A stretch of 64,000 nucleotides of DNA from a virus (IMGVR_UViG_3300046820_001896), one strand, 5' to 3'; shown: positions 6,709-39,713, counted from the first letter of the stretch. The notes: a model not told the origin generated them from the letters alone. Numbers and translations: made by a program.

Positions 6709-7043
6709 TGGATCTACTAATTGGTATAGTAACAGGAGTTATATTAACTCTTATTGTGTTAAATATTCTTGCTAAAGCTGTTGATGAAATTAGAAATAAA
6801 CAACTCGACAAGAAACTAGAAGAAGGGTTACAAAAGCTTAGAGAAGTTGTAATTCCTAGTCGCATCGAAGTAGTCAATGGCATGTTGTTTTTGTACAACA
6901 AAGAAAATGGCGAATTCATAGCACAAGGTAAAAACTTCATTGAGTTAAACGATAATGCAAAAGCTCGTTATCCTGAGAAACTATTTAATGTACCTCAAAA
7001 CGAGATTGATGCAGTAACTAAAGGAATATCAATAAAGGTATGA
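6708..7043 (+). CDS. N-terminally membrane-anchored protein (111 aa)
   Basis: In-frame ATG at 6708 (TAATG overlap) gives MDLLIGIVTGVILTLIVLNIL. The longer ORF-track start at 6642 overlaps the upstream gene. Confidence 0.55.
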   Translation: MDLLIGIVTGVILTLIVLNILAKAVDEIRNKQLDKKLEEGLQKLREVVIPSRIEVVNGMLFLYNKENGEFIAQGKNFIELNDNAKARYPEKLFNVPQNEIDAVTKGISIKV

Positions 7044-7315
7044 TTAACGATAATAAATTTTATACGATAGTTGTAGCTATTACTATTTTACTTGGTGGAT
7101 GCATTGCATGGGGAATTATTTCAAGTAATAATCGTGCAGAAGCTGTTAAGTTGGCTTTAGAAAAAGGTCAAAATCCATTATATGTTAAGTGTTCAATGAA
7201 TACTACAACAACAGAAGAGTGCCAATCTATGATTATGGCTATGTCACTCTCAGGTCAATTTAAGGACGCCTCAGCTCCTATTTCAGTCTCACCAGCAAGT
7301 TACCCTAAAAAGTAA
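7040..7315 (+). CDS. membrane-anchored protein (91 aa)
   Basis: ATGA overlap with the upstream gene. N-terminal TM segment FYTIVVAITILLGGCIAWGII. Confidence 0.55.
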   Translation: MINDNKFYTIVVAITILLGGCIAWGIISSNNRAEAVKLALEKGQNPLYVKCSMNTTTTEECQSMIMAMSLSGQFKDASAPISVSPASYPKK

Positions 7316-7346: not shown

Positions 7347-7673
7347 ATGCCAGGAATTGCTAGAGTTGGTGTTGACAAAGCCGGTGGAGTAGTCACCGGT
7401 AATTTAGCTCCCACAGTTTTCGTAAATGGTTCACCTATCGTAGTGATAGGTGCAACTATTGCAGGTCACGGACTTGCTCCTCACGCTTCTCCAACTATGG
7501 TTGAAGGAGCTGTTGACGTGTTTGCGAATGGTATAGGTATATGTAGAACTGGCGATTTGGCATCGTGCGGTCATGCTATTTCAGGTTCAGATAATGTATT
7601 AACAGGATTTTACCCAAATCCGGGACCTACACGATTTGGTATTTCGAAATTTGGTGTGGAGAAACAAGGATAA
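7347..7673 (+). CDS. PAAR-domain spike-tip protein
   Basis: Gly/Val-rich beta-rich 108-aa protein with GHGLAPHASP and TGDLASCGHAISG, typical of PAAR proteins (T4 gp5.4 class). Confidence 0.7.
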   Translation: MPGIARVGVDKAGGVVTGNLAPTVFVNGSPIVVIGATIAGHGLAPHASPTMVEGAVDVFANGIGICRTGDLASCGHAISGSDNVLTGFYPNPGPTRFGISKFGVEKQG

Positions 7674-7674
7674 T

Positions 7675-8094
7675 ATGGCATTAAAATATGCAGATAACGT
7701 TGGATCACAATTATTTGATCCTATTGGAGAAACAGATACTTTTGTAGTAGTAGAATCTGTTACATCATTTCCAGCAAATATATCACCAACTGATTTTGCT
7801 GTAGCAACTATTGCTAACGATGATAATAGTTTAACAGAATCGATTAAAATTACTTTTATTGATCGTCCTACTAGAACATTGACAATAGAACGAGGATACG
7901 ATGATTCGACACCGCGCAATTGGCCAAAAGGATCTAAATTAGAAATTCGTATTTCATCTGGTTTTTTCAGAGCATTTGAAGAACAGGTAAATACATATAC
8001 CGACGATGCAATTTCTGCATTAGAAACTTCATCGAATACAACAACAGAAGCTAAATCTAAAGCAGCATTTGCAGTTGCTTTTGTATTAAGCTAA
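7675..8094 (+). CDS. hypothetical (structural?) protein (139 aa)
   Basis: In-frame ATG at 7675, just after the PAAR stop. The ORF-track start at 7636 overlaps the PAAR gene. Confidence 0.6.
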   Translation: MALKYADNVGSQLFDPIGETDTFVVVESVTSFPANISPTDFAVATIANDDNSLTESIKITFIDRPTRTLTIERGYDDSTPRNWPKGSKLEIRISSGFFRAFEEQVNTYTDDAISALETSSNTTTEAKSKAAFAVAFVLS

Positions 8095-8103
8095 GGAGAT
8101 TAA

Positions 8104-8733
8104 ATGTCTTTTGATTTTGAATTTACGCAAGAAAAACTTGCACACGTTATTCCTAACGCAAAGTATGGAGTAGAAACATGGCACAAAGAATTGGTAGAAC
8201 TTTTACCAGTTTTTGAAATTACTACAGTTGGTCGTGTTGCTGCATTTGTTGCGCAAACTGCTCATGAATCTGGTGGTTATACAGCACTAAAAGAAAACTT
8301 AAACTATAGTGCTGAAGGTTTGCATAAACTATGGCCAAATCGTTTCCCAACGGTTGAGTCAGCTATGCCTTATAATCGTAATCCGCAAGCTATCGCTAAT
8401 AAAGTTTACTCATCACGTATGGGTAACGGAGATGAACATAGCGGTGAAGGTTGGTTGTATTGCGGTCGTGGTCTACTACAATTGACTGGTAAAGCAAACT
8501 ATTCTGCATTCGCACAATACGCAGGTATGTCAGTAGAAGATGCACCTGAATATATCGAATCTCCACGCGGTGCTGTACACTCAGCATGTTGGTTCTGGTA
8601 TTCAAATGACTTGAATACATACGCAGATGCTGGTGATTTCACTGGTATGACTAAGCGTATCAATGGTGGTACAATCGGTTTAGACGATCGTATCAAACAT
8701 TATAATCACGCTGTAGAGATTTTCTCAGCGTAA
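8104..8733 (+). CDS. endolysin, GH19 / chitinase-class-I-like lysozyme
   Basis: RVAAFVAQTAHESGGYTALKENLNYSAEGL ... YCGRGLLQLTGKANY is the conserved core of phage GH19-type muramidases. RBS aaggag. Confidence 0.8.
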   Translation: MSFDFEFTQEKLAHVIPNAKYGVETWHKELVELLPVFEITTVGRVAAFVAQTAHESGGYTALKENLNYSAEGLHKLWPNRFPTVESAMPYNRNPQAIANKVYSSRMGNGDEHSGEGWLYCGRGLLQLTGKANYSAFAQYAGMSVEDAPEYIESPRGAVHSACWFWYSNDLNTYADAGDFTGMTKRINGGTIGLDDRIKHYNHAVEIFSA

Positions 8734-9058: not shown

Positions 9059-9084
9059 AAAGGGGACGAAAGTCCCCTTTTTTT
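9059..9084. terminator. bidirectional rho-independent terminator between convergent genes
   Basis: aaaggggac-gaaa-gtccccttt with T-rich flanks on both strands. Confidence 0.8.
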
Positions 9085-9098
9085 ATGCTTACTACTAT

Positions 9099-9653
9099 TT
9101 AAATAGTAATCGGTACAACTAACCATATACCTTGTGTTAGTAATAGAAGACCTATTACACCAACACCGAGGCTTGCATAATACATTCGCATATTGACAGC
9201 GATGATAGATGCGGATAATAAAACAATGGCGAGTTGGAATAACATTCCAGAGAATGTCAACCATGGACCATGTTTACGTGCTTCTTCACGTTCAGCTTCG
9301 TATGCTCTTGCTTTAGCTAAAAGTTCTTTCTTACCTTCACCAGATACTGGATCAGATTCGTATCTTTCGATCTTTGCTTTTAGTTTATCGGCTCTCGCAT
9401 GATCGCCTCTGTCTTTAGCTGTTTCGTATTCTGCTTCAGCTAATGATTGTTTCAATGATTTAGCTTGAAAGAATCCATACGTATTAGACGCTTTTAACAA
9501 ATTAGTCATCGCTGATCCGCTAAAGCTATTAGCAAAATATGTGTTTAATGCTAAGAACAATGCCATAATGACAATCACTAAACCAGCTTTGTCTTTAATT
9601 TGTGCTTCACGTTCGCTACGTGTCAATGGTTTCTTTTCTACAACTTCAGTCAT
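9099..9653 (-). CDS. DUF4337-like membrane protein (184 aa)
   Basis: TM helix, then FFQAKSLKQSLAEAEYE, a charged coiled coil and C-terminal TM helices. This matches the DUF4337 architecture (YYQAKGIKQNLAE) recalled from memory. RBS aagga. Confidence 0.6.
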   Translation of the reverse strand: MTEVVEKKPLTRSEREAQIKDKAGLVIVIMALFLALNTYFANSFSGSAMTNLLKASNTYGFFQAKSLKQSLAEAEYETAKDRGDHARADKLKAKIERYESDPVSGEGKKELLAKARAYEAEREEARKHGPWLTFSGMLFQLAIVLLSASIIAVNMRMYYASLGVGVIGLLLLTQGIWLVVPITI

Positions 9654-9663
9654 ATAATTTCCT

Positions 9664-10158
9664 TTATTTTCCTGCTAATGGGTTATCCAAAGCTTTCTGA
9701 ATCTTATTATCTATCTCTTTACGTACGTTACGGATTTCACGATCTACTTCTTTTTGAGCTTCTGTTGCTTCACGTGCAGATTGTTTAGCTGAACGTTCTA
9801 CTTGTTCAACAACTCCTTCTAAACGACGGATATCATTCTTAAGATCATTCTTGATATCACGTGTGTAGTCATTTGTCTTTGAGCTGTTTTCTTCGATGAC
9901 AGCTAACTTTTTATGCACTTCAGTCAAATCTGGTGTAACATACTCAGCAATCTTTTTCTTCATGCTTTGATAGTCTTTATATACTTCGAATACGCCGTAT
10001 AAACCACCAAGTGTTGATGATACGATTGTTGCTGCAATCATCAATTTAGCTGGAGTAAATTCATAACCACCAATACTAATTACAGTATTAGCACTCATGT
10101 ATTTTTCTTTAGCATCTGCTAAATCGTCTATCTTTTTGTTTAAGTTTTTATCTGACAT
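9664..10158 (-). CDS. single-pass membrane coiled-coil protein (164 aa)
   Basis: One TM segment (LMIAATIVSSTLGGLYGVF) followed by a long charged heptad-like region. RBS aaggga. Confidence 0.65.
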   Translation of the reverse strand: MSDKNLNKKIDDLADAKEKYMSANTVISIGGYEFTPAKLMIAATIVSSTLGGLYGVFEVYKDYQSMKKKIAEYVTPDLTEVHKKLAVIEENSSKTNDYTRDIKNDLKNDIRRLEGVVEQVERSAKQSAREATEAQKEVDREIRNVRKEIDNKIQKALDNPLAGK

Positions 10159-10167
10159 TTTCTTCCC

Positions 10168-10347
10168 TTATTTCCACACTATATGTGTGCTTTTCTTTGT
10201 TGAACTAGATTTAGCAACTGGTTTTACAGGTGCTTTTCGTTTTTGTGGTGATTGAGCCTTAGTACAATTCAATTCGTAAAGCGTATAAAGGGATAGTGCT
10301 AAGGATATCACTGAAATTACATAAGCTACAAATGGCATATAATCCAT
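10168..10347 (-). CDS. small membrane protein with basic tail (59 aa)
   Basis: In-frame Met giving MDYMPFVAYVISVISLALSLYTLY..., starting 1 nt after the stop of the 647-aa gene. The longer ORF-track version overlaps that gene. Confidence 0.5.
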   Translation of the reverse strand: MDYMPFVAYVISVISLALSLYTLYELNCTKAQSPQKRKAPVKPVAKSSSTKKSTHIVWK

Positions 10348-10348
10348 G

Positions 10349-12292
10349 TCAATCCTTTCTGTTATATTGTGAATCAACCATATCATAGTGCACTTTATCT
10401 GAAGGACCAAATAGTCCCATACTTGCACGACGATTATCAATAGTCTTTTGATTGTTGTATACTGTAAATGGTTTGTAACCTGCCACATCTGGCATTTTTA
10501 CTTGATAAGCATCAAATCCTGGAGTAAAACCCATTGCTTGGATAACTACGTTTTGAATTTGCTTTTGCTGTTCCATATCAGCAGCTTTACCCATGTTTCC
10601 AGCTAAATTTTTACCATCCTCAACTGCTTTAGCTTTTGCTGCTGCTTCACGTCTTGCTTGAAGTTCTTGGCGTGCAGTTGGTTTTGGACTATCTGAAGTT
10701 TTACTATTATTTGTTGATGCAGTTGTTGTAGATCCACCAGAAGATGCTTGTGTATTTGATGGAGCATTTTCTTTAGGTTCTTCTTTTTTGGCTGGTGCAG
10801 GTGCTGTAGCGACTGACGTAACAGAAGTTGGTGAAGATGTGCTCGTAGAACTAACTGAAGGTGTTAAACTAACAGCAGTAGTCGCTGCTGCCGCAGGAGA
10901 CGCAGATGTAGATGTTGATGTAACAACGTTATTAACAACTGGATCTGATATCACCGCTACAGGAGTTGATGATGTATTTGTATTAGATGCTACAACTACA
11001 GTTTCGGCAACAGTAGTTGTTGTCGTAGTAGTAGGTGTGTTTTGTCTTTGTAATGCTTGTTGAGTAGCATACGCTTCACCATAATTTGGGCAACGAGTAG
11101 AATACAAACCGCTTATTGTACATTGTTGACTAAAATATGCTTCTTGATATCCTGGACAATCTGTAGCATATAACGCATTGATAGAACATTGCTGTGCTTT
11201 GTAAGCTTGTTGATAACCACTACACGTTGTAGAATATAATGGATTTAATGAACATTGTAATTCTAAATAAGCTGTCGCATAACCTGGACAGTTCACAGAA
11301 TATAGTGTATTCAATGAACATTGTTGCTCGAAGTATGCTTGTTGATAACCACTACATGTTGTAGAATATAATGGATTAATAGAGCATTGTTGTTGTAAAT
11401 AAGCAGCTTGATAACCTGGACATTGTTGACTATACAATGGATTTGTAGAGCATTGTTGTGTTAAGTGTGCAGCTGCATATCCTGGACAAGATGGATCAAA
11501 TAATGCACTTATTGTACATTGTTGAGCAGTGTAAGCAACTTGATATCCTGGACATGTTGGTGATGATAATGGATTGATGATACACATGTCAACTGGACCT
11601 GTACCATTAGGTGCTTGCCAACTAAAAATACTTGCACTTCCAGGCGTAATGTTTAAACCTCGGCCGTGATAGTATTGATAATACTCACCATTTGCCAAGT
11701 TACCAGACATACCTGAAGTAACTGCATTCCATTGTACCATGGCACCAGCAATTCGTGTATCAACTAAACCAGCAGAGTTGATTTTAATCTCAAAACTATT
11801 ACCGCCTTGTGATGAACAACATTGACTTAAATTATACCAACCATATGTCATACTATTACCTTCACGCAGGTAATATTGGTTTTGGCCATTCCAAGAATAT
11901 AAATCTGTGTGTATACCAAAAATAGAGTAATTGTAACGAGGATCTGTTGTTGTTCTTAAATCAACACCTGTACAACATAATCCATAAGCACCGCTTTGCA
12001 TTGGATCTTGGAACGTTACAACGCCATTAGTCATTGCCCATGAATTATTGAACACTCTACCAAAAAATGGAAAATCAAAACCTAATGGAACATTGCGCCA
12101 ATCGTCATCAGCTGCAGTAATATTAACTGCATTTGGATTTGTGCGAATATTTTGTAAAGGTAAAGCATTAGCGCCTGTTCCAACTGTTATCGACAATCCA
12201 GGAGGAGCACCAGGAATTTGGATCGTAACAAGTTCAGCACGTGCAACAACCGTGCTTACTAATAATAGTAAGGACACAAGTAAGCGCTTCAT
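10349..12292 (-). CDS. secreted 647-aa protein: N-terminal beta-rich domain, 8 x 22-aa two-Cys repeats, Ser/Thr-rich mucin-like linker, C-terminal domain
   Basis: Signal peptide MKRLLVSLLLLVSTVVARA. Residues 237-412 are eight tandem repeats CSINPLYSTxCPGYQxAYxxQQ, followed by T7 and S/T/A/P-rich tracts. The N-terminal PLGFDFPFFGRVFNNSWAMTNGVVTF resembles the NIDO-domain core (tentative). Confidence 0.8.
   Translation of the reverse strand: MKRLLVSLLLLVSTVVARAELVTIQIPGAPPGLSITVGTGANALPLQNIRTNPNAVNITAADDDWRNVPLGFDFPFFGRVFNNSWAMTNGVVTFQDPMQSGAYGLCCTGVDLRTTTDPRYNYSIFGIHTDLYSWNGQNQYYLREGNSMTYGWYNLSQCCSSQGGNSFEIKINSAGLVDTRIAGAMVQWNAVTSGMSGNLANGEYYQYYHGRGLNITPGSASIFSWQAPNGTGPVDMCIINPLSSPTCPGYQVAYTAQQCTISALFDPSCPGYAAAHLTQQCSTNPLYSQQCPGYQAAYLQQQCSINPLYSTTCSGYQQAYFEQQCSLNTLYSVNCPGYATAYLELQCSLNPLYSTTCSGYQQAYKAQQCSINALYATDCPGYQEAYFSQQCTISGLYSTRCPNYGEAYATQQALQRQNTPTTTTTTTVAETVVVASNTNTSSTPVAVISDPVVNNVVTSTSTSASPAAAATTAVSLTPSVSSTSTSSPTSVTSVATAPAPAKKEEPKENAPSNTQASSGGSTTTASTNNSKTSDSPKPTARQELQARREAAAKAKAVEDGKNLAGNMGKAADMEQQKQIQNVVIQAMGFTPGFDAYQVKMPDVAGYKPFTVYNNQKTIDNRRASMGLFGPSDKVHYDMVDSQYNRKD
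11057..11584 (-). repeat. 8 tandem 66-nt coding repeats (22-aa C-x10-C-P-G-Y-x2-A-Y-x2-Q-Q units)
   Basis: Read directly from the translation: CIINPLSSPTCPGYQVAYTAQQ / CTISALFDPSCPGYAAAHLTQQ / CSTNPLYSQQCPGYQAAYLQQQ / CSINPLYSTTCSGYQQAYFEQQ / CSLNTLYSVNCPGYATAYLELQ / CSLNPLYSTTCSGYQQAYKAQQ / CSINALYATDCPGYQEAYFSQQ / CTISGLYSTRCPNYGEAYATQQ. Confidence 0.9.
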
Positions 12293-12294
12293 GC

Positions 12295-12768
12295 TTACTC
12301 TTTACTTTTTACTTTTTGTGGCTTGCGATCTGGATCTGCTTCCCAGATTTGTTTAGCCTGTTCACCGATTTTGCCATCTGCTGGACATGGTGTACCAGCA
12401 TTCATCATAGCTGTGAATACACGTTCATCTTGGCATAAAGTTGATACAGCTGCAACTTTCATACCCATATCGTATAATGAACGAGCTAATTTTAAGCGTT
12501 CGCAGTTCTTATCGGTAACACTACCGCCAAAAGAAATGCCCAACACTTGAGTTTGAGCAGCGCCTGAATATCCTACTGCACAGACGTCACTATTGATAAC
12601 TGTAATTGCTGGTGCAACTGCAGTTGGAGGAGGAGATTTTACTGTTGTTGTGCTATTTGAAGTAGAATCTGTTGTGGATCTACTTGTCGAGTCGGTAACA
12701 ATTGGTTGAGCAATTGTTAATGATGTAGTCATAACAAAAAGCACCGTTGCGGCGATCTTTTTGTACAT
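12295..12768 (-). CDS. secreted Ser/Thr-rich, four-Cys protein (157 aa)
   Basis: The ATG at 12768 has RBS aggaaa and yields the signal peptide MYKKIAATVLFVMTTSLTIAQP. Then an S/T-rich tract and a Cys-containing globular part. Confidence 0.65.
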   Translation of the reverse strand: MYKKIAATVLFVMTTSLTIAQPIVTDSTSRSTTDSTSNSTTTVKSPPPTAVAPAITVINSDVCAVGYSGAAQTQVLGISFGGSVTDKNCERLKLARSLYDMGMKVAAVSTLCQDERVFTAMMNAGTPCPADGKIGEQAKQIWEADPDRKPQKVKSKE

Positions 12769-12834
12769 GGTTTTTCCTGTTTTAGTTATTATAATGAAAC
12801 CAGTGGCATTTTTTGCCACCATGACACTTATTGT

Positions 12835-12846
12835 TATTTATAAATA
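12835..12846. promoter_or_regulatory. palindromic TATTTATAAATA: back-to-back T4-type late promoter motifs in a divergent intergenic region
   Basis: TATAAATA reads on the plus strand at 12839-12846 and on the minus strand at 12835-12842, between the minus-strand cassette and the gene at 12854. Confidence 0.4.
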
Positions 12847-12853
12847 AAAGCAT

Positions 12854-13363
12854 ATGAAAACGCACATTTTAGGCAATGGTCCTTCCAATATATTATATGA
12901 ACCAAGCGATGGATACGTAATCGGTTGTAATGTACAAACCCATCCAGTTGATATATCAATTGCTGTTGATATAAAACCATTCCATTTGTACATGGCAAAT
13001 AGGATGATTTTTCAAGGTAAACCTATCATCACTTCTCAATATGCTATGGATGGAATTAAACATAAAGACATTGAGAAAGAACTAGACATCATTTATAAGT
13101 TACCTTTTTTAGAAAAATATATGAGTGCAGGTCATATCGCTGCAAAATGGGCAATTGATAATGGATACACAGAAATTCATCTATGGGGATTTGACTCAAT
13201 TTGGTCAGATAGCCAAGAAACAAAAACTGACATACTAATTCCTAGAGATAGACGGCAACACGACTTACCTATCCATTGGAGAGAAAAATGGCAACAATTT
13301 AAAACATACAACATAATCGTGCATAACACAATAGAAGGCACACAACTGAAAGACTTAATATGA
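12854..13363 (+). CDS. putative glycosyltransferase-like protein (GNGPS motif; CstII/DUF115-like)
   Basis: N-terminal HILGNGPSN and later MSAGHIAAKWAIDNGYTEIHLWGFDS parallel the IIAGNGPSL and ITSGVYMCAVAIALGYKEIYLSGIDF motifs of Campylobacter CstII-type transferases. Recalled from memory; the protein is short (169 aa). Confidence 0.4.
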   Translation: MKTHILGNGPSNILYEPSDGYVIGCNVQTHPVDISIAVDIKPFHLYMANRMIFQGKPIITSQYAMDGIKHKDIEKELDIIYKLPFLEKYMSAGHIAAKWAIDNGYTEIHLWGFDSIWSDSQETKTDILIPRDRRQHDLPIHWREKWQQFKTYNIIVHNTIEGTQLKDLI

Positions 13364-14983: not shown

Positions 14984-15082
14984 GCTCCTTTCCTTTCGCT
15001 TAGACTGACCACCACATTCGGGAGAATCTGGCTATATAGGTCGCCGCATTAGAGTAAGCGGCTCCATTTATTGAAAGGCTAT

Positions 15083-15259
15083 ATGATTAGACTTTGGTTG
15101 GCATTTTTCGTAATATTTTTTCTGTTTTATGTTGGTATTCCTACATTCCATAAACTCACTGGTCGTGAGAAGTGGGCTGTAACGAAGATCGCATTGTACA
15201 GTTTTGTGTGCTCTTTGCTTGCAATCGGCGCAATGATTTTGATCGTGATTTTATTTTAA
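15083..15259 (+). CDS. small two-TM membrane protein (58 aa)
   Basis: ATG at 15083 with RBS aaagg (the ORF track uses TTG at 15071). MIRLWLAFFVIFFLFYVGIP... Confidence 0.5.
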   Translation: MIRLWLAFFVIFFLFYVGIPTFHKLTGREKWAVTKIALYSFVCSLLAIGAMILIVILF

Positions 15260-15267
15260 GGATTTAT

Positions 15268-16065
15268 ATGAAGACATCTATGAAACTCTTGGCTATCGCA
15301 ATGGCCGTCGCTGCACTCCCAGCATGTACACGTATTGAGACTGGCGAAGTCGGTGTACGAGTTGGTTTCGATAAACAAGTTCAACAAGGCGAACTCTTGC
15401 CTGGTTCGTTCAATCAAGTGTTGATTGGTGATGTGCTTACATTCCCAATCAAAGATGTGAACGTTAAGCTCGAAGATATGACACCTGTTGCAAAAGACAA
15501 TAGCACAATGAAAGACTTCGATGCTGTTGTAATCTATAACATCAATCAAGCACAAGTCGCTGAGCTCTATAGCCAAAAGAGTCAAGCATTCCACGCTCGT
15601 CATAACGGCGACATCTATCTGATGTACAACTATATCGTTCAAACTACTCGTAATGCTATTTACAAAGAAGCACGTAAATACGAAGCATTAGACATGGCTG
15701 ACAATCGTCAAGCAATGGAACAAGCAATCAAAGAACAGATCCAGAAATCACTCGCTGAAGAAAAGCTTGATGGTAGTTTGATGATCGGTCAAGTGTTGAT
15801 TCGTAACATCGTTCCTGCTGATTCAGTCGTTGAGAGTGCAAACGCATTGGTTCGTGCAAAGAACGAACTAAAGCAAAAAGAAGTTGAAGTGCGTACAGCT
15901 AAAATGGAAGCTGAACGTATGCAAGCATTGTCCAATCAAGGTGCAAGTTCTATCGCATACATGAATGCTCAAGCTGCATTGAACATCTCTGAAGGTATTA
16001 AGAACGGTAAAGTGCAAACCATCGTTGTACCTAGCAACATGACTGGCTTGATGATTGGAAAATGA
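15268..16065 (+). CDS. SPFH/band-7 (prohibitin-like) domain lipoprotein
   Basis: The ATG at 15268 (RBS aagga) gives MKTSMKLLAIAMAVAALPAC with the lipobox LPAC. TGEVGVRVGFDK...PGSFNQVL and a long Ala/Glu-rich C-terminal helix are typical of SPFH proteins. Confidence 0.7.
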   Translation: MKTSMKLLAIAMAVAALPACTRIETGEVGVRVGFDKQVQQGELLPGSFNQVLIGDVLTFPIKDVNVKLEDMTPVAKDNSTMKDFDAVVIYNINQAQVAELYSQKSQAFHARHNGDIYLMYNYIVQTTRNAIYKEARKYEALDMADNRQAMEQAIKEQIQKSLAEEKLDGSLMIGQVLIRNIVPADSVVESANALVRAKNELKQKEVEVRTAKMEAERMQALSNQGASSIAYMNAQAALNISEGIKNGKVQTIVVPSNMTGLMIGK

Positions 16066-16310
16066 TGATTATTAATAAAGATACACTCCGCAAAGAACTT
16101 AAAGAAGGTGTGAAAACGATCACCTTCACTAAGACTGATGGCACTCAACGTGTATTGAAGTGCACTCTACAAGAATTTGTGTTGCCACAAGTAGATGCTA
16201 CTAAATTAGTAACTGCCAAAAAGCAGAACGATGAAGCACTTGCAGTGTGGGACATTGAGAACGCAGGGTGGAGATCATTTAGGTATGATTCAATCATCAG
16301 CGTCGTATAA
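16062..16310 (+). CDS. conserved phage small protein (82 aa)
   Basis: ATGA overlap. ITFTKTDGTQRVLKCTL...WDIENAGWRSFRYDSI resembles a common phage small-protein family (from memory). Confidence 0.6.
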   Translation: MMIINKDTLRKELKEGVKTITFTKTDGTQRVLKCTLQEFVLPQVDATKLVTAKKQNDEALAVWDIENAGWRSFRYDSIISVV

Positions 16311-17046
16311 AGCTTTTGTCATTCATAAAGAAGATCAAGAGATAAGCAGTAAACTTGCTCAGGCTTGTGTAAACACGGGTAAAAAATTTGGTATACATGT
16401 TGAGAAGGTCAATGGACTATATCAACAAACTGCACAAGAATTTTTAGCTCATCACAACCTAAGACCTTATTTAGAGAATGGCAAAGAGACTCTACTAACA
16501 AAACAATTCCCACGAAAGGGTGTTTTGGCGAGTCATTATATGATGTGGTTGAAGTGTGCAGAGTTGGACGAACCAATCATCATCTTAGAACATGATGCTT
16601 TCTTTGTTCGACCTCTGCCAGAGGTTCATGGAAAGTTTACAGACTTTCTATCGCTTGATCCTCACACGAATGATCCTACTCAAGACACAGCTGAGTCACG
16701 TGCCACTTTCATAATGAATCCTAAATTATATGGAGAAAAAGTTATGAAAGATGGACCACAGACGATCGAACGTTTCTATGGTTATGGTAATTATACAGAT
16801 GAAATTAACTTCGAGCAGTTGAGGAATAGGTTCATTCGTGGTTCTCATGGATATATCATTACACCTGATGCATGTAAAAAACTTTTTAAAGTGATTGAAG
16901 AAATTGGTTATGTTACTAGTGATGTACAACTCAATTCATTATTCATAGAGATGTACATACTACAACCAAACGTAGTGCGAGTTAATGATTTTTTCTGCAA
17001 TACTTTTAATCATCAACGATATTCACATTGTAGTACCACAGTATAA
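16285..17046 (+). CDS. glycosyltransferase family 25-like protein
   Basis: YKAFVIHKEDQEIS... start and IILEHDAFF match the GT25 pattern (VINL...R, LEDD). I prefer the ATG at 16285 over 16231, which lies deep in the upstream gene. Confidence 0.55.
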   Translation: MIQSSASYKAFVIHKEDQEISSKLAQACVNTGKKFGIHVEKVNGLYQQTAQEFLAHHNLRPYLENGKETLLTKQFPRKGVLASHYMMWLKCAELDEPIIILEHDAFFVRPLPEVHGKFTDFLSLDPHTNDPTQDTAESRATFIMNPKLYGEKVMKDGPQTIERFYGYGNYTDEINFEQLRNRFIRGSHGYIITPDACKKLFKVIEEIGYVTSDVQLNSLFIEMYILQPNVVRVNDFFCNTFNHQRYSHCSTTV

Positions 17047-38423: not shown

Positions 38424-39713
38424 ATGACAAATAAAGTTTGTGGTGTAAATGCCGCTTTAGATGAAGCAAAAGCAGGAATTAATTCTTTAAAAGATAAAAT
38501 TTCTGGTGGATTAGACTCGATTGGAGATTTAGGTGGTTTAGCAACTACTATTAAAAATAAACTTGCTGAGGTAAATGTACCTCAACTTCCAACAATAAAT
38601 CTTCAAGCAGAATTAGCTAATTTACCTAAATTAACTCCTGAAGAATATGCAGCCAAAGTAGCTGAATTAAAAAAAGCTTTTGGAGATGCAGTTCCAAATT
38701 TAGATAATATTATTTCTAAAATTCCTAAACCAGCAGGCGTGGATGGAGTTGGCCAAAAAGATATTTTTGCAGATTTAAAAGCTTTAGCTGGTGATGTTGG
38801 TGCTGCTGTTAGAAAGGCACAAGAAGAACTCGCAAACTTAAGCATTGATTCTGTTGTTGCTGATGTATGTAAAGAAGTACCAAACGTAGAAGTAGTTACT
38901 ACTACTGAAACTGTTAAAATTGCTGATCCAAAAACTGGTAAAGAAACTAAAGTTGAAGTTCCTGTAACATCTCCACCAGTTGAAAAAGCAAAACCACCTA
39001 CAACACCAAAAGAAAATCCTAAAAAAGAAATACCACCTTCAGAACCTCCTGCAAAAGGTTTTACTTTTAATTTTACAAGAGAAAAATTAATTGCTGCAGG
39101 TGGAAAAGAAGCAGGACCATGGTATGATGCTATGGTAGAAATGTTGCCAAAATATAACATCACAACTCCTGAAAGAGTTGCCGCATTTATTGGTAACGTA
39201 AGAGCTGAATCTACATGGACTAAGTTGTCTGAAAATTTAAATTATGGAGCTAAGTACTTATTTGAAAGATTAAATCCTGGACGTATTCGTTTTCCAACTT
39301 ATGAGGATGCTGTTAAAGTAGAAAGAAAACCAGAACCTATTGCTAACATAATTTATATGGTTGGTCGTAAATTGCTAGATCCACAACCAGGTGATGGTTG
39401 GAAATTTAGAGGGCGTGGATTGATTGGTTTAACCTTTAAAGATGAATATTTAAGAGCTTCTAAAGCAATCTATAATGATGATAGATTGGTACAAAATCCA
39501 GATTTAGTTGCAACTGATAGAACTACAGCAATCTTAACTGCATGTTATTTCTTTAAACGCAATAATATGAATCCATGGGCAGATAAACAAGATTGGGGAA
39601 ATTGTAGAAGTATCGTTAATGCTGGTTCTCCTGGTAAAGATCCTAAAATTATTCACGGATATGAGTCTGGAGTAAAATTTCAACAAGATGCATATAACGT
39701 TCTGAAAGGTTAA
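38424..39713 (+). CDS. tail-associated lysin: coiled/Pro-Lys linker plus C-terminal GH19-type muramidase domain
   Basis: C-terminal ERVAAFIGNVRAESTWTKLSENLNYGAKYL...FRGRGLIGLTFKDEY is paralogous to the endolysin at 8104-8733. The linker is VTSPPVEKAKPPTTPKENPKKEIPPSEPP. Confidence 0.75.
   Translation: MTNKVCGVNAALDEAKAGINSLKDKISGGLDSIGDLGGLATTIKNKLAEVNVPQLPTINLQAELANLPKLTPEEYAAKVAELKKAFGDAVPNLDNIISKIPKPAGVDGVGQKDIFADLKALAGDVGAAVRKAQEELANLSIDSVVADVCKEVPNVEVVTTTETVKIADPKTGKETKVEVPVTSPPVEKAKPPTTPKENPKKEIPPSEPPAKGFTFNFTREKLIAAGGKEAGPWYDAMVEMLPKYNITTPERVAAFIGNVRAESTWTKLSENLNYGAKYLFERLNPGRIRFPTYEDAVKVERKPEPIANIIYMVGRKLLDPQPGDGWKFRGRGLIGLTFKDEYLRASKAIYNDDRLVQNPDLVATDRTTAILTACYFFKRNNMNPWADKQDWGNCRSIVNAGSPGKDPKIIHGYESGVKFQQDAYNVLKG

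Follow-up and report, generated by a model that had tools for sequence, protein, structure and literature searches.

We analysed a stretch of viral DNA of 64,000 nucleotides (nt) (IMGVR_UViG_3300046820_001896; hereafter the window) and a cassette of five genes on its minus strand. The source virus is a divergent T4-like myovirus. The window genes include a gp32-type single-strand DNA-binding protein, baseplate wedge and hub proteins, a PAAR protein and two GH19-type lysins, and the only related phages among those deposited (Sinorhizobium phiM12, Stenotrophomonas IME-SM1 and Caulobacter Cr30) are remote, with 25-30% protein identity. The five open reading frames (ORFs) of the cassette, here called A to E in order of increasing coordinate, lie at 9099-12768 with gaps of 10, 9, 1 and 2 nt, while all other long ORFs from 1366 to ~28000 are on the plus strand. 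As an initial annotation of the locus had stated, the cassette encodes nothing but exported and membrane proteins, judged by hydropathy and leader sequences. That annotation treated the cassette as one moron-like unit. We found instead a conserved core of three genes, E-D-B (the triad), with A and C as optional inserts. A nucleotide search of the block against the INPHARED phages gave no match, and tblastn of D and of A, a DUF4337 protein, against phages found nothing. A look-up by exact sequence gave no recorded contig for D.

E (12295-12768) encodes an exported protein of 157 amino acids (aa). Its signal peptide (aa 1-20) consists of an N-terminal hydrophobic stretch and an AXA-type site (TIA followed by Q), and is followed by a Ser/Thr/Pro linker (aa 21-58, 45% S+T) and a domain with four cysteines (4-Cys domain, aa 60-150) made up of a beta-hairpin and four helices. 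The start codon at 12768 has AGGA 7 nt upstream and agrees with the lengths of homologues; an alternative reading of the ORF begins at 12822. D (10349-12292) encodes an exported protein of 647 aa with the same type of leader (signal peptide aa 1-19), and all leaders of D-like ORFs that we inspected start with a hydrophobic, signal-like segment. The signal peptide of D is followed by a conserved beta-sandwich head (aa 20-235) and by eight helix-loop repeats of 22 aa with the pattern C-x9-C-x-[GN]-Y (aa 237-412, nt 11057-11584). The linker after the repeats, disordered and rich in Ser/Thr, covers aa 419-537 (nt 10682-11038), and the conserved C-terminal domain, which is helical and ends in VDSQYNRKD, covers aa 538-647 (nt 10352-10681). 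Both secreted proteins had been described as carrying Ser/Thr tracts, and that of D indeed reaches 45% S+T over aa 419-540. B (9664-10158) encodes a bitopic membrane protein of 164 aa. A segment of ~38 aa precedes its single hydrophobic, transmembrane (TM) segment (aa 39-57), which is followed by a coiled coil of ~100 aa and the C-terminus ALDNPLAGK, in which the motif NPLxx is conserved.

The AlphaFold2 (AF2) model of D gave the beta-sandwich head at aa 22-226 (predicted local distance difference test score, pLDDT, 60-89) and the eight 22-residue repeats, with two cysteines each, at aa 236-417 (pLDDT >90). Residues 419-537 were disordered and were followed by the helical C-terminal domain. 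D carries 20 conserved cysteines. The number of repeats varies from 5 to 15 across homologues, and a 66-nt period is visible in the DNA.

Window proteins were mapped by tblastn on two T4-like contigs from NCBI and 30 IMG/VR loci (given below by their L numbers). E, D and B were found in the same order and orientation in every mapped locus that spans the region. We also counted patterns in 35 E loci with at least 3.5 kb of downstream sequence. A B-like ORF, defined as an ORF downstream of E with an N-terminal TM segment and an end in NPL plus 0-6 residues, was present in 32 of the 35, and a large ORF directly followed E in 29. The triad was found in seven cultured phages (HTVC115P, HTVC033P, HTVC023P, HTVC202P, Mosig, CRP-810 and CRP-207), which infect Pelagibacter or Roseobacter and belong to several unrelated genome types. 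In these seven, E is followed by a large signal-peptide protein and, 1-4 genes on, by a TM/coiled-coil protein ending in NPL plus 0-6 residues.

E is the best-conserved member of the triad, and its four cysteines are conserved. The 4-Cys domain is 52-65% identical in the Pelagibacter podoviruses HTVC115P, HTVC033P, HTVC023P and Baldr, in HTVC202P and in the myovirus Mosig, and more remote relatives of E were found in the Roseobacter phages CRP-207 and CRP-810 and in Ralstonia phage RSP15. B is 40% identical to gp49 of HTVC115P, and the C-terminus of gp53 of the same phage aligns with that of D (E=2e-7). A hidden Markov model of the last 110 residues of D picked up the ORF that follows E, both in HTVC115P and in eight contigs of metagenome-assembled genomes (MAGs), with proteins of 302-853 aa. 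Homologues of E number at least 8000 (the family forms 1623 clusters at 50% identity) and those of D more than 2849, many of them on contigs of 100-200 kb. Because the triad recurs in thousands of aquatic phage sequences, we regard it as a conserved envelope-acting system and not as a one-off block of cargo.

Two types of module were distinguished. In type 1, D ends in DxQ[YW] and B is long (142-207 aa, with AL[DE]NPL); no extra gene was noted. In type 2, D ends in a coiled coil, B is short (96-132 aa), and a DUF7201 protein follows B in Mosig, L058, L060 and L068. The type of D and the type of B always pair in the same way, and E is common to both types of module. This strict pairing is our main argument that D and B physically cooperate; alternatively, the two types could be two old lineages of the module. 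The DUF7201 protein is a tail-anchored coiled-coil protein; in L003 its gene lies at 4318-4746. Matches to this family, for which no function has been described, went down to E=1.9e-17 (Mosig and three MAG contigs).

No known family was found for E, D or B in Pfam, NCBIfam, the PHROG functional families or PADLOC, models of exclusion and defence included. The PHROG match of E is phrog_20531, which is of unknown function. B matched only generic coiled coils in Pfam, NCBIfam and PADLOC; the PADLOC hits were coiled-coil noise, such as the tail of ZorA at E=1.8e-5 over the coiled coil, and weak matches to tail-fibre coiled coils were obtained as well. Neither 67 E-family members nor 18 diverse D-like proteins matched a Pfam family. 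Searches of PDB sequences with D and E gave no match, and a Foldseek comparison of the D model with the PDB found nothing at E<0.04. Searches of the literature on DUF4337, DUF7201, pelagiphage lysis genes and the carrier phages found no description of the triad. The statement in the initial annotation that the locus corresponds to no recognised phage system thus stands. A NIDO-like domain, suggested by the motif DDxxxxVPLGFxFPFFG in D, was rejected, as there was no match to the Pfam NIDO profile.

These comparisons also correct GenBank annotations that look wrong in two phages (L036, CRP-810, 3319-5587; L070, CRP-207, 1834-3873). Gp53 of CRP-810, annotated as 'OmpA family protein', is a homologue of E with no OmpA match in Pfam, and an OmpA fusion of E in this phage was rejected for lack of such support. 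CRP-810 gp51 ('lysozyme') and CRP-207 gp73 ('putative lysozyme') are homologues of B that combine a TM segment and a coiled coil with an NPLGR or NPL end.

The cassette was said to be bounded by a bidirectional terminator and a palindromic late-promoter motif, and we found both. A hairpin at 9059-9080 (9-bp stem, five GC pairs, T-rich tails on each strand, -15 kcal/mol) is terminator-like on both strands and closes the cassette as well as the converging plus-strand genes. At the other end, the palindrome TATTTATAAATA yields TATAAATA on both strands, at 12835-12842 (minus) and 12839-12846 (plus). The minus-strand copy forms a T4-type late-promoter box 67 nt upstream of the start codon of E. TATAAATA and CTAAATA are the late-promoter boxes of T4 and cyanomyoviruses. 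With 8 copies against 7.8 expected, TATAAATA shows no enrichment in the window, but 7 of them immediately precede gene starts. At the palindrome, the plus-strand copy ends just 7 nt before the ATG at 12854, which makes it a poor promoter for that gene, and it is probably a by-product of the palindrome.

In 13 of 26 distinct upstream regions of relatives, E is preceded at 42-81 nt by CTAAATA or TATAAATA, with 0.32 expected, although a p-value for this count would overstate independence since the loci are related. Boxes of this kind upstream of E suggest that the module is transcribed late. Many E leaders (L001-L039) have TTATAAT/C ~20-30 nt before the ATG, which may be a second, sigma-70-type -10 element. 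A fold scan found a hairpin in the leader of the E transcript (12801-12821, minus strand, z=-2.6). Comparable leader hairpins were present only in L006, L010 and L039, and a universally conserved leader hairpin was therefore rejected.

The opposite-strand placement, which the initial annotation had emphasised, is not a general trait of the module. An inverted triad beside a GH19 gene was seen solely in the window and in L005, which is closely related; in most relatives the triad is co-directional with its neighbours and with homologues of the window genes at 16062 and 17098. GC skew falls over the block, as expected for a local inversion, and the GC content of the block (0.37-0.38) is the same as that of its flanks.

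We found that adjacency of the triad to lysis genes is recurrent but not universal. In HTVC023P, the order is E, D, a small basic protein, B and an M15 peptidase endolysin, and the start of the endolysin gene overlaps the stop of B. In HTVC033P, an Amidase_2 lysozyme gene lies 0.9 kb before E-D-B; a gene for a tail-anchored TM protein precedes it, and a second TM-protein gene and two small genes separate it from E. An i-spanin-like gene (gp54) and an unannotated ORF with a lipobox (3561-3821, LLSAC) lie directly before E-D-B in CRP-810. In CRP-207, the gene next to B on its downstream side encodes a protein with two TM segments, described at the end of this account. A GH19 lysin gene is found 0.4-1.5 kb from the triad in the window and in L001, L005, L010 and L011.

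The GH19/phrog_181 lysin gene beside the cassette in the window (8104-8733, plus strand) follows a PAAR gene (7347-7673) and a gene for a protein resembling a tail-fibre N-terminus (7672-8094). A second GH19/phrog_181 lysin (38424-39713) is located in the baseplate block, beside a gp5-like hub. Upstream of the PAAR gene lie three small membrane genes, encoding a 65-aa holin-like protein with two TM segments (6511-6708), an i-spanin candidate with an N-terminal TM segment (6705-7043) and a 91-aa o-spanin candidate with a lipobox-like LLGGC (7040-7315), the gene for which overlaps the preceding one by 4 nt. By their layout the last two are possibly a separated i-/o-spanin pair. The genes at 6511-7315 had no Pfam or PHROG match.

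Since every product of the cassette is exported or membrane-bound, an envelope-acting function, as first suggested, is a reasonable class. Our preferred interpretation, to which we give a probability of roughly 0.4, is that the triad forms a late-made, inner-membrane-anchored, periplasm-spanning complex in the lysis/exit programme. It is favoured by the late timing suggested by the promoter boxes, by the likeness of B to an i-spanin or a T-type holin and by the recurrent contact with lysis genes. The module would be transcribed late, from a T4-type late promoter. E and D would be exported via Sec and their many cysteines would make disulfides in the periplasm, while B would be inserted in the inner membrane with its coiled coil of ~100 residues in the periplasm. 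D would dock onto B by its conserved C-terminal domain, and E, near-invariant across lineages, would bind either the NPL tail of B or an invariant envelope component such as peptidoglycan. The disulfide-stapled rod of repeats and the flexible linker of ~120 residues would keep the head of D, which weakly resembles sandwich domains of carbohydrate-active enzymes, at a distance from the inner membrane and closer to the wall or outer membrane. The outcome would be a tether across the periplasm, anchored in the inner membrane and acting on the envelope late in infection as an accessory of lysis/exit. It might couple the envelope layers as spanins do, or it might control the timing of lysis as the T4 holin T and antiholin RI do, with B as membrane partner and E and D as exported regulators. 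We infer the topology of B, the contacts among E, D and B, and the role in lysis.

Several observations weigh against this interpretation. Linkage with lysis genes does not hold everywhere and lacks statistical backing: of 108 genes neighbouring the triad within ~4 kb in ~22 diverse loci, just 3 encode peptidoglycan hydrolases, which for small genomes is not clearly above chance, and we rejected a statistical enrichment as not demonstrable in these loci. The surroundings of the triad in most T4-like relatives are genes of nucleotide metabolism and small unknown genes. The GH19 protein encoded beside the cassette in the window may be a virion lysin, because its gene follows the PAAR and tail-fibre-like genes. 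The charge distribution only weakly indicates that B is oriented with its N-terminus inside and its coiled coil in the periplasm. No component of the triad has a lipobox, and the triad does not simply take the place of spanins, since CRP-810, and possibly the window at 6705-7315, have canonical candidates as well. Finally, no known lysis protein resembles D in its length of 647 aa and its long disordered linker.

The nearest working analogies, without homology, are the two-component spanins, discussed below, and the T4 T/RI pair. The T4 system comprises the holin T and the antiholins RI, which is periplasmic, and RIII. B resembles T in being a predicted single-TM protein with a large periplasmic domain, and there is in both cases a small companion exported by a signal sequence, a T4-like genome and late promoters. 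In HTVC023P, B immediately precedes the endolysin gene, a position that holins usually occupy. However, there is no homology, B has a coiled coil where T has a globular domain, the 4-Cys domain of E has no known fold, and D has no counterpart. B, E and D had no match to lysis families in Pfam, NCBIfam or PHROG.

In phages that infect and kill the most abundant bacteria of the ocean, nearly all lysis and exit genes lack annotation, and the timing of lysis governs the carbon released by such infections. The triad, with thousands of homologues in metagenomes and a presence in myoviruses and podoviruses of SAR11 and Roseobacter, is a concrete candidate for one of the components missing from this picture. 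It can be tested directly, since it is found in cultured phage-host pairs.

More tentatively, E-D-B may be a new envelope machine, a periplasmic sensor or tether with an anchor in the inner membrane, which would determine the moment and manner of cell opening by an undescribed principle, different from those of holins, endolysins, spanins and known exclusion proteins; we consider this possible but unlikely. One form that it could take is a timer of the lysis-inhibition type, sensing the state of the envelope via the head of D. E would then represent a new fold, stabilised by disulfides, with an invariant component of the envelope as its binding target. Spread of the triad by exchange among unrelated phages of streamlined aquatic bacteria (SAR11, Roseobacter and freshwater hosts) is part of the same tentative proposal.

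The main rival to a role in lysis/exit is superinfection exclusion or receptor masking, which we think doubtful. Here the head of D, anchored by B, would bind a host envelope glycan or receptor, either from the periplasmic side or on released debris, and block rival phages or keep progeny from being wasted on lysed cells. The export or membrane location of all parts would suit such a role, and D heads vary across phage lineages while E and B stay similar. The head shows a weak likeness to sandwich domains of carbohydrate-active enzymes, and D of HTVC202P gave a CBM_4_9 match below threshold (E=0.02). The module lies in a variable region of many T4-like relatives, and a pelagimyophage study ties such a region to host recognition and avoidance of coinfection (PMC7029224). 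D also evolves faster than its neighbours, with 67% identity between the window and L005 compared with 85-99% for the flanking proteins. Within this clade, however, conservation along D is highest in the head (87%) and it is the linker that diverges (31%; repeats 73%, C-terminal domain 72%). Exclusion offers no obvious role for E, the best-conserved part of the triad, and no PADLOC, Pfam or PHROG match supports it. Furthermore, the T4 exclusion genes imm and sp are expressed early, whereas a late-promoter motif is conserved here. Imm and Sp are likewise phage-encoded inner-membrane and periplasmic proteins, but they have no homology to the triad and are products of early single genes, not of a three-gene unit with a late-promoter motif.

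An adhesion or aggregation device ('sibling capture'), similar in purpose to curli, is improbable. D, which is long, repetitive and rich in low-complexity sequence, would act as a sticky Ser/Thr-rich or acidic fibre that is displayed or released. Pelagiphages swap multi-gene envelope modules across families (PMC9599517), and the triad has the same cross-family distribution. By analogy, the nearest precedent for such a module is the pelagiphage curli operon (type VIII secretion system), which consists of CsgG, CsgF, CsgA/B and FecR (PMC7029224, PMC9599517). Like the triad, it is a multi-gene envelope module that SAR11 myoviruses and podoviruses carry and their host lacks, and it is abundant in ocean metagenomes. 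Its proteins are wholly unlike those of the triad, though, and identity with the curli operon was rejected on this ground: none of the five cassette proteins, the 67 E-family members and the 18 D-like members matched a Csg family in Pfam, and the two papers on the operon do not describe the triad. The module encodes no outer-membrane pore or translocator such as CsgG or an autotransporter barrel, and B would anchor the system at the inner membrane.

We give equally little weight to a non-canonical two-component spanin, with B as the i-spanin and E (or D) as an outer-membrane partner that lacks a lipid anchor. In spanins such as lambda Rz/Rz1 and T4 PseT.3/PseT.2, an inner-membrane protein with a periplasmic coiled coil, as predicted for B, works with exported partners and is expressed late, as the triad would be; the triad also stands beside endolysin or holin genes in some phages. 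B has the N-terminal TM segment and helical coiled coil of an i-spanin, with its N-in orientation weakly supported, and the order TM, helix, linker, helix is clearest in the short type-2 B. The conserved tail of B suggests an end-to-end contact with a partner, and the cysteines of the partners recall disulfide-linked o-spanins. An o-spanin is, however, a lipobox lipoprotein encoded beside the i-spanin gene, and E and D have AXA sites for signal peptidase I. C has no lipobox either; its single cysteine is absent from the L009 and L024 homologues, so C is not a lipoprotein and was rejected as an o-spanin. In CRP-810 the triad coexists with a canonical pair directly upstream, and with candidates also present in the window the triad is not the sole device for outer-membrane disruption. 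A three-gene unit with a member of 450-850 aa and a long disordered linker does not fit the family, and there is no sequence similarity. Membership of the spanins thus fails for want of a lipoprotein and because the triad coexists with canonical spanins.

The moron-like reading of the initial annotation, host-derived cargo encoding an O-glycosylated secreted adhesin that works with nearby glycosyltransferases, is very improbable and largely refuted by the conservation data. The cassette does have its own promoter box and terminator, Ser/Thr tracts are present, and the GT25 gene was confirmed at 16231-17046 (E=4.6e-14). The gene at 12854 has the GNGPS motif as described, but its assignment as glycosyltransferase-like found no match in Pfam, NCBIfam or PHROG. 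Neither glycosyltransferase-like neighbour is kept with the module, the 12854 homologue adjoining it in L005 only, so that O-glycosylation is unsupported. D linkers of other lineages are acidic or Gly/Asn-rich and thus look like spacers, not like glycosylation substrates. The other traits of a moron, sporadic presence and deviant GC content, are absent: the triad is kept in all relatives that span the region and in cultured phages, and only A and C, singly, behave as optional inserts. In a genome collection, E occurred only on contigs of scattered taxonomy from MAGs and single-amplified genomes, including two Alphaproteobacteria single-cell genomes. This pattern resembles mis-binned phage DNA and does not fit a cellular homologue, and a host origin of E was rejected.

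A role in virion structure or morphogenesis has next to no probability. The triad does follow tail-fibre genes (HTVC115P, CRP-810) or precede terminase (HTVC202P) in podoviruses, and B has its weak tail-fibre matches. Virions, however, assemble in the cytoplasm, whereas cleavable signal peptides and multiple disulfide cysteines locate E and D outside it, and the module differs in position and neighbours among lineages, with no fixed synteny with morphogenesis genes.

The two optional genes of the cassette have the properties first described for them. A (9099-9653, minus strand) encodes a 184-aa protein with three hydrophobic segments and a central charged helical region, and is a clear member of DUF4337 (PF14235, E=1.4e-30, 107 bits against a cut-off of 27), a family of unknown function. 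It lies outside the conserved core and was found in about a third of the loci (8 of ~25 relatives), mostly after B and in L013 and L032 before E. More than 3600 homologues of A were counted. A copy with 73% identity is located on a phage-like contig of 348 kb (L071, 6001-7231) with no triad nearby. There, the DUF4337 gene is followed by a gene for a secreted protein resembling an outer-membrane beta-barrel (ending in GLGFSF), and a homologue of the window gene at 6705-7043 lies nearby. C (10168-10347, minus strand) encodes a 59-aa protein with one hydrophobic TM segment, inserted between D and B. Its homologues were found only in L005 (78% identity) and in L009 and L024 (45% identity), and the spacing between D and B in most relatives is 16-34 nt.

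Another optional membrane partner of the triad is a protein of 114-118 aa with two TM segments and the EF-hand-like motif DxDGDGxIT. Its gene is found inside the triad in the T4-like contig L002 (12137-12481) and directly after B in the Roseobacter podovirus CRP-207 (L070, 3870-4226). At coordinates above those of the cassette, the window carries an SPFH/Band 7 gene (15071-16065, Pfam E=2.5e-18) preceded by a 62-aa ORF with two TM segments. This pair is conserved in L005 and resembles bacterial NfeD-SPFH gene pairs.

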